From the IMG/VR virus record IMGVR_UViG_2874962485_000008: a DNA stretch of 35,626 nucleotides, one strand, 5' to 3'. Shown piece by piece: positions 21,001 to 24,000 of the stretch; the first letter of the stretch is position 1; every line of letters starts with the position of its first letter. The stretch is from a virus (taxonomy: Duplodnaviria > Heunggongvirae > Uroviricota > Caudoviricetes). The position numbers were made by a program.

Positions 21001-24000
21001 CCTGACCTGCTGGCGGAAAATGTCCTGATAATCTTCGCCCATCAGTGCCAGTTCTTTCTCATACGTGCTCAGTCCGGCCTCAATGCGCATCACCGATTCC
21101 TGGACCTCCTTGAGCCCGTCAATGGCCATTCTTCCGGAGCTAATCCACTCTGCCCGTGACCAGGCTGAACGCGCCTGGTAAAAATCAAAACGCGCCCGTG
21201 GCGGACGAATAATCCCCCGAAGAAGCGCCTCTTCCAGCCAGCAGGAAAACATCTGCGTGGCCAGCCGGGCCGCAATAAATTTTCGCCGCCCCATAAAATA
21301 GCGCCACGACTCATTGGCGGAGGCGCGGGCACTTGAGTAACTGACCTTCGAGTAATCACGGGACAACTGTTCGTAGGAAACGCCAAGACCGGCTGCAATA
21401 TACCGCAGCAGCGCCTGTTCAAGCGCCGAAAATCCATTGTCTGAATCCTGCGCTGTCTGCAGGTTCAGCGCATCGCCAGGAAAAAAGGTGCGGAATTTTA
21501 ACACCGCCCAGCGTCACGTTATTCGTGTCATACCAGCGGGTGAACTTCTCCAGAATATTAATAAGCGGATTATCCTGCTGACCTTGCGGTGCCCCCGCGA
21601 TATATTCAAATGCCTTTTCGGTATCAAGTTCACTTTCGATTGTGGCTGCATACATCGCCTTCACAATGGCCGACTGAAGCTGCGTGGCCTGCAGGGAGTC
21701 CAGCATCTTCATCCGCTCCATTACGCTGTAAAACTGATTAGCCCCACGGGTCTGCCCGTCCTCCACCGGCTCAAAAATATGCAGCATGGCCGGACGCCCG
21801 GTGGGAAGCTCACGCGGGATCCGCTCCCAGCGTCCGGCACCAGAGAACGGAAAATCATCCTCACAGATATGGTACGCAATCGCCCGCCCATACCGATCGA
21901 CCTCAACCCCGGCCCGCAGAAAGTGGTTCCCCATACCGTGTCCTGGCGTGTCCACCCGTTTCGGACTCACGGCTTTAAAACGCGTACGGAATAACTGCGT
22001 GGTTTCCGTATCCCAGACCGGCTGCACAAAGATTTCGCCGTTAAAGGCATGCACGCCCACCCCTTCACGGATAAATTCCGTAAACGTGCGTTTCCCTTCC
22101 ACGTCGATCTCGCCAAACATTCCTTCTGCGTATTCCGACCAGGCTGCTTCCACCTCCCCGACAAAACTTTTTGCCGTGGTCTCCCGCATCCCCAGCCAAC
22201 GCCAGTTCAGACGGTAGCTGATAAGAAACATGTGCCCGACGATATGATCCTTATGCAGGGCCACCGCATTAGCCGCGATACCGTTATTGCGCACCAGATC
22301 ATCTGCCCGGGCATTCCCCAGACGCAATGCAGGCAACAGGGCCGCATCGGCACTCTGCGCCGGTGGTAACCACTCTGCCATTTGCCCGCCAAATCCTGCG
22401 CCGCCTCCGTTGTAGCTGAGACTCTCACGAAGCGGAACGCCGTTCACATCAATCAGGACAGGCGTTCGTTTCATAACCTCACTCCCAGCGGTCGGCGGCG
22501 TCGGGTCGTACCCAGAACCGACTCCGCATCGTTGATCGCACGGTTAAGCTCATTCAGGGACGCTGCCGTATATTCGATCCTGCGACCGTCTTTCTGTACC
22601 GACACAACCCGTTTACCGGTTAATAAATCAAGGCGCGCCTGACGCAGCGCCTGCAGTTCAGCGACTGTAACCATTCACTCCTCCGGACAGCTTCGCTGCC
22701 AGTTCTTCAAGGGTCGGTTGTGCAGTTGCATCCTTGCGGGATGCAACTGCACAGCCAGATCAAGTTGCCAGCGTTGCACGGACACACGTAATGCCGCATA
22801 GGCATACACCAGGCAGTCCAGCGCTTCGTTACGCCGCTTTTTGTTATCCCACAACAGACGCATCTTTCCTTTTTCCCACTTTTCCACCAGTTCCTCCGCC
22901 ACCAGTTGTTGTGCCTCTGTCTGCGAAAAAATCTCCGGATTATCAGGAAAGCGGATGGCATACGATGTGGCCTCATTCACAGGGGTGGGATCGGCCTTCA
23001 TTCGGGCATAGAGAATTTCTTTTGCGGTATCCGTCCCCACCTCACACAGATACACACCCCGCTGATTGCGGGTTTTCGGCATGGTGATCACCGGCTTGCC
23101 ATAGACAGAGGCACCTTTTACCGGCAGTACCCGGAAAATACCGTGTTTTTTTGACCTCTGATACACGATTTCGCCATCGATCCCCCCGATATCCCAGCAG
23201 ACACGGGAAATGGTCATTTCGGTACCGTCTGCATGGCGGTATTTTTTATTGATCGCCGCATCCACACGTAACAGCGTCTCTTCCTCATCAGGACGTCCCA
23301 TGATGATGATTTTATCCACCAGAAAGGCTTCCTCTCCCGGAGCCCACCCCCAGACATACATCTCAAAACGGTTTCGCTGCGAGTCAATGCCCGCCGTCAG
23401 ATAAACCACCCGGACAGGCACCGTTGCCGTGTAAGGCACAACCTTATCCATCAGTACCTGGTGATCGAGTTTTTCGCCCACGGCCTCTTCCCAGGTCTCG
23501 CCCAGCGTGGTGTTCACAAAAGTTTTCACGCCGTTGGGATCTTTCAGTGCATCCAGCCAGTCACAGACTATCTGTACCCTGGTGGTGAACGGACTGTACG
23601 CCGTCCATATATGGAAAGTGATGGAGCGCGGCGGCGGAATTTCATTACCCGAAGCACTGAAAAACGTCAGACCGTCACACGTCCACATCCCGGTATTGTC
23701 ACAAATCCAGCGCCCCCCGGTCTGATCAAGTTCAGACTGACGGATCACGCAGCCATTATGTTCACACAGGTAATACACCGTTTCCGGTTTACCCTTCTCC
23801 CATTTCAGGCCAAACGACGTCGCATCATCGCCAAACTTCAGATACTGCTCCTCCCCGCAATGAGGGCAAGGGACATAAAACCGCATGAAATGCGCAGATT
23901 CATTCGCAGCTTTTTCAATCTGACAGGAGCCTTTAATTTTTGGCGTTGAACCGCGTATGGATTTTGGCCATACCGAACCTTCAATACGTTTATCGCCAAG

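Follow-up and report, generated by a model that had tools for sequence, protein, structure and literature searches.

Is the portal gene of this prophage, which appears in the sequence as two overlapping reading frames, a broken gene, an intact gene misread by one base, or a gene that is meant to be read with a shift of frame? The window, that is, the whole stretch of 35,626 nucleotides analysed here, carries the gene where lambda and phage 21 have it, with gpW on one side and the gpC protease on the other. The reading favoured here, with a probability of about 93%, is that a lambda-family portal gene has become a pseudogene through a genuine frameshift, passed on vertically in a cryptic lambdoid prophage of S. 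flexneri. The portal locus and its two neighbours comprise the following features:

21481..21486, minus strand: site of the T-run insertion (T6 on the minus strand, A6 on the plus strand; intact relatives have T5).
20881..22474, minus strand: whole portal pseudogene, homologue of lambda gpB and the phage 21 portal, 1594 bp versus 1593 bp when intact.
21419..22474, minus strand: 5' portal fragment, an ORF of 351 aa with an ATG start, taken from the ORF list and matched by the PF05136 profile.
20881..21504, minus strand: 3' portal fragment, an ORF of 207 aa with a GTG start, holding native residues 332-530 from position 21480 down.
22471..22674, minus strand: gpW head-tail joining gene, the upstream neighbour of the portal, intact, 67/67 residues identical to locus L001 (PF02831).
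19386..20891, minus strand: gpC, an S49 protease/scaffold of 501 aa, downstream and overlapping the portal 3' end, full length and without gaps.

On the plus strand, positions 21474-21495 read ...cgccagg AAAAAA ggtgcgg..., and the coding context on the minus strand is CAC CTT TTT TCC TGG. The 351-aa ORF consists of 331 native portal residues, 100% identical to the intact portal in a tblastn comparison, followed by a 20-aa out-of-frame tail, SWRCAEPADSAGFRQWIFGA, and a stop codon; it overlaps the 207-aa ORF at 21419-21504. Deletion of one T yields a single ORF of 530 aa, whose junction reads ...GGVKIPHLFPGDALNLQTAQD... and whose restored frame encodes the junction-spanning peptide ...KIPHLFPGDALNLQ.... 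The Pfam family Phage_portal_2 (PF05136) matches the 351-aa fragment with 228.7 bits against a cut-off of 32.9, covering profile positions 2-288 of 354, and the same family is among the precomputed hits of the 207-aa fragment. Moreover, residues 5-527 of the repaired protein align to residues 7-530 of lambda gpB (8k38) with an E value of 4.4e-213, unbroken through the junction, and six further solved lambda portal entries also match it. The lambda portal reads ...GGAKVPHLMPGDSLNLQTAQD... at this point; in particular, the junction residues are PHLMPGDSLNLQTAQD in lambda versus PHLFPGDALNLQTAQD in the repaired protein, so that lambda has Met where the window protein has Phe. The original prediction had placed two minus-strand portal ORFs in overlap at a T6 run (A6 on the plus strand, 21481-21486), and both its coordinates and its description prove correct; its statement that a T5 run would restore a frame continuous as in lambda B holds for the continuity but not for the junction residue.

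An uninterrupted ORF of about 530 aa comprising wing, stem, clip and crown is absent from the window. The frame is lost after residue 331 and a stop follows 20 codons on; thus, the locus is to be classed as a portal-family pseudogene rather than a functional member of the family. For the 207-aa ORF, no convincing start was found, in that the sequence upstream of the GTG holds no Shine-Dalgarno (SD)-like element at proper spacing, and gene callers disagree on the 3' fragment, giving products of 207, 137, 123 or 69 aa, or none. Several assemblies leave the interval from gpW to gpC without a called product, as would be expected if the portal were annotated as a pseudogene.

The repaired portal is collinear with lambda gpB (PDB 8K38/8XOT series), and the gene order Nu1, A, W, B, C, D, E is the same; the window DNA is 93.5% identical to the phage 21 portal gene (PF05136). 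Unlike both, the window copy carries an extra T after codon 331 and encodes a 351-aa product. The closest relative is the prophage of E. coli CFSAN029787 (NZ_CP011416, WP_046880246.1), in which an intact "phage portal protein" is annotated. Its portal gene differs from that of the window by one substitution and the indel, and the repaired window protein differs from WP_046880246.1 by one residue. The late regions of the two prophages are collinear, at 97-99.7% identity, and in both ipaH lies beside the tail-fibre genes. In contrast to the window, CFSAN029787 has T5, retains the parDE/kilA-N/cos segment, and has TerL, Nu1 and the tail fibre intact. The annotation of its ipaHe, on the other hand, records a frameshift; the window shows the reverse, with broken morphogenesis genes and an intact IpaH.

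The original prediction had allowed two explanations, namely inactivation of the prophage at its portal by slippage in the homopolymer, or an error of sequencing or assembly, and had named comparison of the locus in related genomes as a check. That comparison supports slippage: 20/20 fetched S. flexneri loci, each from its own assembly accession, have T6, whether the record is a complete chromosome or, at the other extreme, a draft contig of 26.9 kb; the nearest two E. coli loci have T5. The truncated 351-aa product is found unchanged on at least 1000 contigs (2587 index blocks), including AAN42336.1 (S. flexneri 2a 301), AAP16213.1 (2457T), ABF04804.1 (5 str. 8401) and ADA73063.1 (2002017). 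Among complete E. coli genomes, 1877 contain matches to the 1594-bp portal region (1881 records), and a further 20 matching records are from phages. Each of the 40 E. coli matches listed spans 1593 bases of its own record, as does each of the 17 listed phage matches with full query coverage. The exact T6 allele over 71 nt was not found in complete E. coli genomes by megablast, which returned 7 records; because this search needs a 28-nt exact word, it shows the absence of an exact T6 match and does not amount to scrutiny of every portal.

The run itself is of ordinary length. The window holds 47 homopolymer runs of at least 6, and A6 by itself is thus unremarkable; the longest runs of the intact portal gene are of length 5 and number seven, the expanded one lying at nt 989. 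What sets the portal run apart is that it alone among the 47 breaks a frame, the other two frame breaks lying outside homopolymers, a pattern unlike platform-wide homopolymer miscalling. Moreover, the added base is the sole indel over 1594 bp relative to the nearest intact portals (L001 and L002), which is not attributable to chance. Judged by these sequence comparisons, the extra T is a real, inherited S. flexneri allele and not an assembly error.

The lesion probably arose by replication slippage, through which the T5 run gained a T. Translation would then leave the portal frame after Phe331, add 20 wrong residues and stop. In lambda gpB, the wing domain is formed by residues 24-249 and 368-452, the stem by 250-279 and 343-367, the clip by 280-342 and the crown by 453-511 (PMC10721106). 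The equivalent of Phe331 in lambda is residue 334, near the end of the clip. Mapped onto lambda gpB, the truncated product would contain the first wing segment and stem helix and the greater part of the clip; the second stem helix, tunnel loop, second wing segment and crown would be missing. The dodecameric channel, from which proheads are nucleated and through which DNA passes, is not expected to form from such a protein.

Is the portal the only gene to have been lost? The late genes of the intact relative were each compared with the window by tblastn, and several further lesions came to light around the packaging genes, along with an intact cargo gene:

22675..24585, minus strand: large terminase subunit TerL, 636 aa, with the last ~30 residues frameshifted, a second lesion of the packaging motor.
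24557..24880, minus strand: stump of the small terminase subunit (Nu1), reduced to residues 68-169 by loss of its N-terminal part.
24862..26128, minus strand: IS600 (IS3 family), filling the gap between Rz and the Nu1 stump.
1060-2823, in plus-strand coordinates: ipaH cargo gene, encoding an intact IpaH of 587 aa with complete LRR_TTSS and NEL domains.

The TerL frameshift falls at residues 612-615, and the intact C-terminus, LAASRKDATAQPTLEELAAKLSGGVNGYSR, is still readable in another frame. The Nu1 stump covers positions 85-163 of 164 of the Pfam Phage_Nu1 profile. IS600 stands in place of approx. 2.5 kb of the intact relative, comprising the 3' end of Rz, parDE, kilA-N, the cos region and the 5' part of Nu1. 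Rz is truncated at residue 134 of 155. The window has neither parDE nor kilA-N, and lacks also the stretch leading from these to Nu1, in which cos lies by position (the phage 21 left end). The tail fibre is frameshifted at residue 351 because a (GACT)3 repeat (plus strand, 3933-3948) has lost one of its units, and the truncated form is the exact sequence of AAN42355.1 of strain 301. The remaining late genes are full length, and Q, holin and lysozyme are intact. These lesions are widespread as exact sequences: the frameshifted TerL occurs on at least 1000 contigs and the Nu1 stump on 343. The exact IpaH protein is found on 350 contigs across Shigella.

With cos and the 5' part of Nu1 lost to IS600, the prophage is predicted to be incapable of making particles in any case. 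In the sub-lineage to which the window belongs, the frameshifted TerL C-terminus and the truncated tail fibre would add to these defects, ipaH being left intact. The portal lesion, which had been taken as the point of inactivation, is thus real but not the sole lesion and perhaps not the decisive one, as at least 10 loci share with the window the deletion, associated with IS600, that took cos and the 5' part of Nu1. The prophages of S. flexneri have been described as uniformly cryptic following massive loss of functional genes (PMC5596473). The window agrees with this description, in that it combines several independent inactivating lesions (cos/Nu1, TerL, portal, tail fibre and Rz) with a cargo gene, ipaH, that is intact and widespread. 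This is the usual picture of an immobilised prophage in which the cargo gene is kept, and it reflects ordinary prophage decay.

The distribution of the lesions also bears on their age. Two sub-lineages can be told apart among the S. flexneri loci. One, comprising the window, L004, L006, L008, L009, L011 and L014-L023, carries the TerL lesion together with a G-to-A substitution (Gly to Ser in EWIGSGRM), and the other, comprising L005, L007, L010, L012 and L013, has the E. coli state at both the TerL and the Gly/Ser sites. T6 is common to both; the portal frameshift is thus older than their split, unless it arose twice. The 107-aa Nu1 stump adjoining IS elements likewise occurs in the window and in at least 10 of the loci, which come from both sub-lineages. 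The TerL lesion and the Gly-to-Ser change appear to have come later, in one sub-lineage, with ipaH evidently intact throughout. The portal region has barely changed since, with 0-3 substitutions in 19/20 loci, and one locus, L014, has an additional 2-nt gap within the N-fragment.

The portal lesion is not strictly universal. Nineteen contigs, among them a chromosome of 4.66 Mb, carry a repaired allele that combines T5 with Ser (P0032; WP_134799197.1/QBQ21922.1, labelled S. flexneri). Of the two sub-lineages, both of which bear T6, one alone has Ser, and Gly is found in the other as well as in E. coli. Since Ser was thus derived within a T6 sub-lineage, T5 with Ser needs a reversion of T6 to T5, independent gains of T6, or undercalls of the homopolymer. 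This allele could be taken to mean that the run alternates in length between T5 and T6 within S. flexneri populations and switches the portal in a manner that resembles phase variation, with no fixed lesion at all. Such a reversible tract is very unlikely. The count of tract lengths is lopsided (T6 in 20/20 fetched loci, and T5 with Ser on about 19 contigs versus at least 1000 with the truncated product), and a tract of only 5-6 nt is shorter than typical contingency tracts. Moreover, switching would have no phenotype because the irreversible IS600 deletion of cos and Nu1 blocks packaging. For the same reason, a restored portal would not revive a phage that lacks cos and the N-terminal part of Nu1, and the T5 allele leaves the conclusion that the window portal is an inherited pseudogene unaffected.

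A different possibility is that the overlap is designed, such that a functional full-length portal is made either by a programmed +1 shift of the ribosome at CUU UUU U or by slippage of the polymerase on the U-run. The change needed is of the right kind, namely a +1 shift or the loss of one U from the mRNA, and CUU-U, the slippery motif of prfB, is present. The arrangement resembles Shigella mxiE (U-run transcriptional slippage) and prfB (+1 at CUU U), in which overlapping ORFs meet at a T/U run or at CUU-U. In addition, the 91 nt downstream fold slightly better than shuffled sequences (z = -2.03, with 5/200 shuffles as good). As the downstream sequence is identical in the T5 relatives, this fold is not specific to T6, and a z of -2.03 is unpersuasive. 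In the closest intact relatives the run is T5 and the portal a single ORF, and the listed E. coli and phage matches are one base shorter than the window. Conservation of the shift among homologues has been used as the criterion for purposeful slippage (PMC1088944); by that standard the portal site, where both the shift and the length of the run lack conservation, speaks against purposeful slippage. The established bacterial slippage sites treated in that paper are runs of about 9 A or T, compared with a run of 6 in the window. No SD-like stimulator was found within a few nt upstream of the T-run, and no slow or stop codon after it, the next zero-frame codons being UUU UCC, which are ordinary sense codons. 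The portal thus differs from mxiE and prfB in that its run is 6 and not about 9, its run length is unconserved, its homologues need no shift and stimulatory elements were not found. Even a restored portal would serve a prophage without cos and the N-terminal part of Nu1. Programmed recoding was rejected on the unconserved run length, the run of only 6, the stimulators that were not found and the functional relatives that are in frame; it is extremely improbable. Low-level restoration of the frame through ribosomal or transcriptional errors may nevertheless occur in the T6 gene.

It might also be proposed that the gene has been split or exapted, with one or both fragments expressed and retained for a function in the host. 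Most S. flexneri loci have the same N-fragment ORF, and the portal region has barely decayed further, which could suggest selection. The whole prophage, however, is equally undiverged (99.7-99.99% identity among loci), so that low divergence, including conservation of the fragment, is explained by recent ancestry and not by selection. The inconsistent start of the C-fragment among gene callers and the additional gap in the N-fragment of L014 also speak against retention, which as a general proposal is next to impossible. In a more specific form, the 351-aa N-fragment (wing, first stem helix and clip, without crown) would be kept as a dominant-negative subunit that poisons the proheads of superinfecting phages of the lambda/21 type. 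Late genes are normally silent in a lysogen; in this scheme, the Q protein of the superinfecting phage would switch on the resident late operon, and the intact Q, holin and lysozyme genes are in keeping with an exapted role. If true, a defence function would have emerged from prophage decay; such a role for the fragment is extremely doubtful.

The remaining alternative, that the extra T is a sequencing or assembly error and the true genome has T5 and an intact portal, can point to the 19 S. flexneri-labelled contigs that encode a repaired portal and to homopolymer miscalls as a common artefact of some platforms, but it is almost certainly wrong and was rejected, given T6 in all 20 separate assemblies from complete chromosomes to draft, the exact truncated product on at least 1000 contigs, and a portal run that is the only one of 47 to break a frame.

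The pseudogene is, as an annotation, not new. The window corresponds to the cryptic ("grounded") S. flexneri prophages of strains 301 and 2457T, in which both fragments are exactly AAN42336/AAN42337 and AAP16213/AAP16214; in these records they were deposited separately as "head-tail preconnector gp5". The split portal has thus been known as annotation since the first S. flexneri genomes. A search for literature on the portal frameshift specifically found none, only general accounts of cryptic Shigella prophages and ipaH islands. For annotation, the two ORFs should be merged into one portal pseudogene and the prophage treated as defective; beyond that, the lesion is of little importance. It does illustrate clearly in what order a Shigella prophage decays, and the T6 site could mark the S. 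flexneri lineage versus enteroinvasive E. coli that carries an intact phage.

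The terminase large-subunit (TerL) gene of the prophage bears a complex lesion, and further features lie elsewhere in the window. The features concerned are as follows:

1060-2823, plus strand: ipaH cargo gene, encoding an intact 587-aa IpaH with LRR_TTSS and NEL E3 ligase domains
3927-5030, minus strand: tail-fibre gene, with loss of a tetranucleotide repeat at 3933-3948
17092-17864: FI and FII genes, both full length
22722-22750, minus strand: frameshift in the 3' end of the TerL gene
24862-26128: IS600 copy, between an Rz stump (26126-26545) and a Nu1 stump (24557-24880)
32563-34086, minus strand: group II intron reverse transcriptase/maturase ORF (RVT_1 and GIIM)

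The TerL frameshift is complex: the ancestral GCTGGCGGCAT has become GCAGTTGCAT, which amounts to three substitutions and the loss of 1 nt. The resulting arm exactly matches the reverse complement of ATGCAACTGC, located 9 bases downstream, and an imperfect palindrome has been turned into a perfect hairpin, with a DNA fold of -18.6 kcal/mol for the new form versus -10.1 kcal/mol for the ancestral one. This change carries the hallmark of a quasipalindrome template switch, captured in a natural lineage. The lesion is restricted to one S. flexneri sub-lineage and scrambles the last ~30 TerL residues; in lambda gpA, the matching region is the prohead-binding end.

A repaired portal allele with the T5 run, P0032 (WP_134799197.1 / QBQ21922.1), is found on 19 contigs and carries the Ser specific to one of the S. 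flexneri sub-lineages that bear the T6 run. Such a combination of T5 and Ser would require reversion, independent gains of T6, or homopolymer miscalls. One S. flexneri chromosome (L014, CP182555.1) shows 22 mismatches and a 2-nt gap within a single 145-bp patch of the portal 5' fragment (columns 705-849 of the portal region alignment); this patch looks like either gene conversion from the portal of another lambdoid prophage or an assembly problem.

The tail-fibre product is cut at residue ~351 of 470 by the loss of one repeat unit, the window having (GACT)2 versus (GACT)3 in E. coli CFSAN029787. A stop codon directly follows the repeat loss, and what remains of the gene can still be read in a different frame (3580-3939). 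In S. flexneri 301, the matching entry for the shortened product is AAN42355.1.

IS600 stands in place of ~2.5 kb found in the intact relative, comprising the 3' end of Rz, a parDE toxin-antitoxin pair, a kilA-N gene, the cos region and Nu1 codons 1-67; in other S. flexneri lineages, additional IS copies are nested at this spot. FI and FII are 54% and 65% identical, respectively, to the genes of the E. coli relative, which is elsewhere 97-99% identical; here the module for head-tail joining has been replaced in mosaic fashion. The intron ORF of the window sits past the replication genes. Another S. flexneri locus (L004) has a separate intron copy (2321-3742) that follows the Q antiterminator gene and precedes the holin gene; this Q-holin copy is absent from the window.

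The cargo gene, going by strain 301 gene numbering, is probably ipaH0722. In the E. coli relative (L001), the ipaH gene that occupies the equivalent place (39659-41301) is annotated as frameshifted and the phage genes are intact, whereas the window displays the reverse pattern, with ipaH intact.
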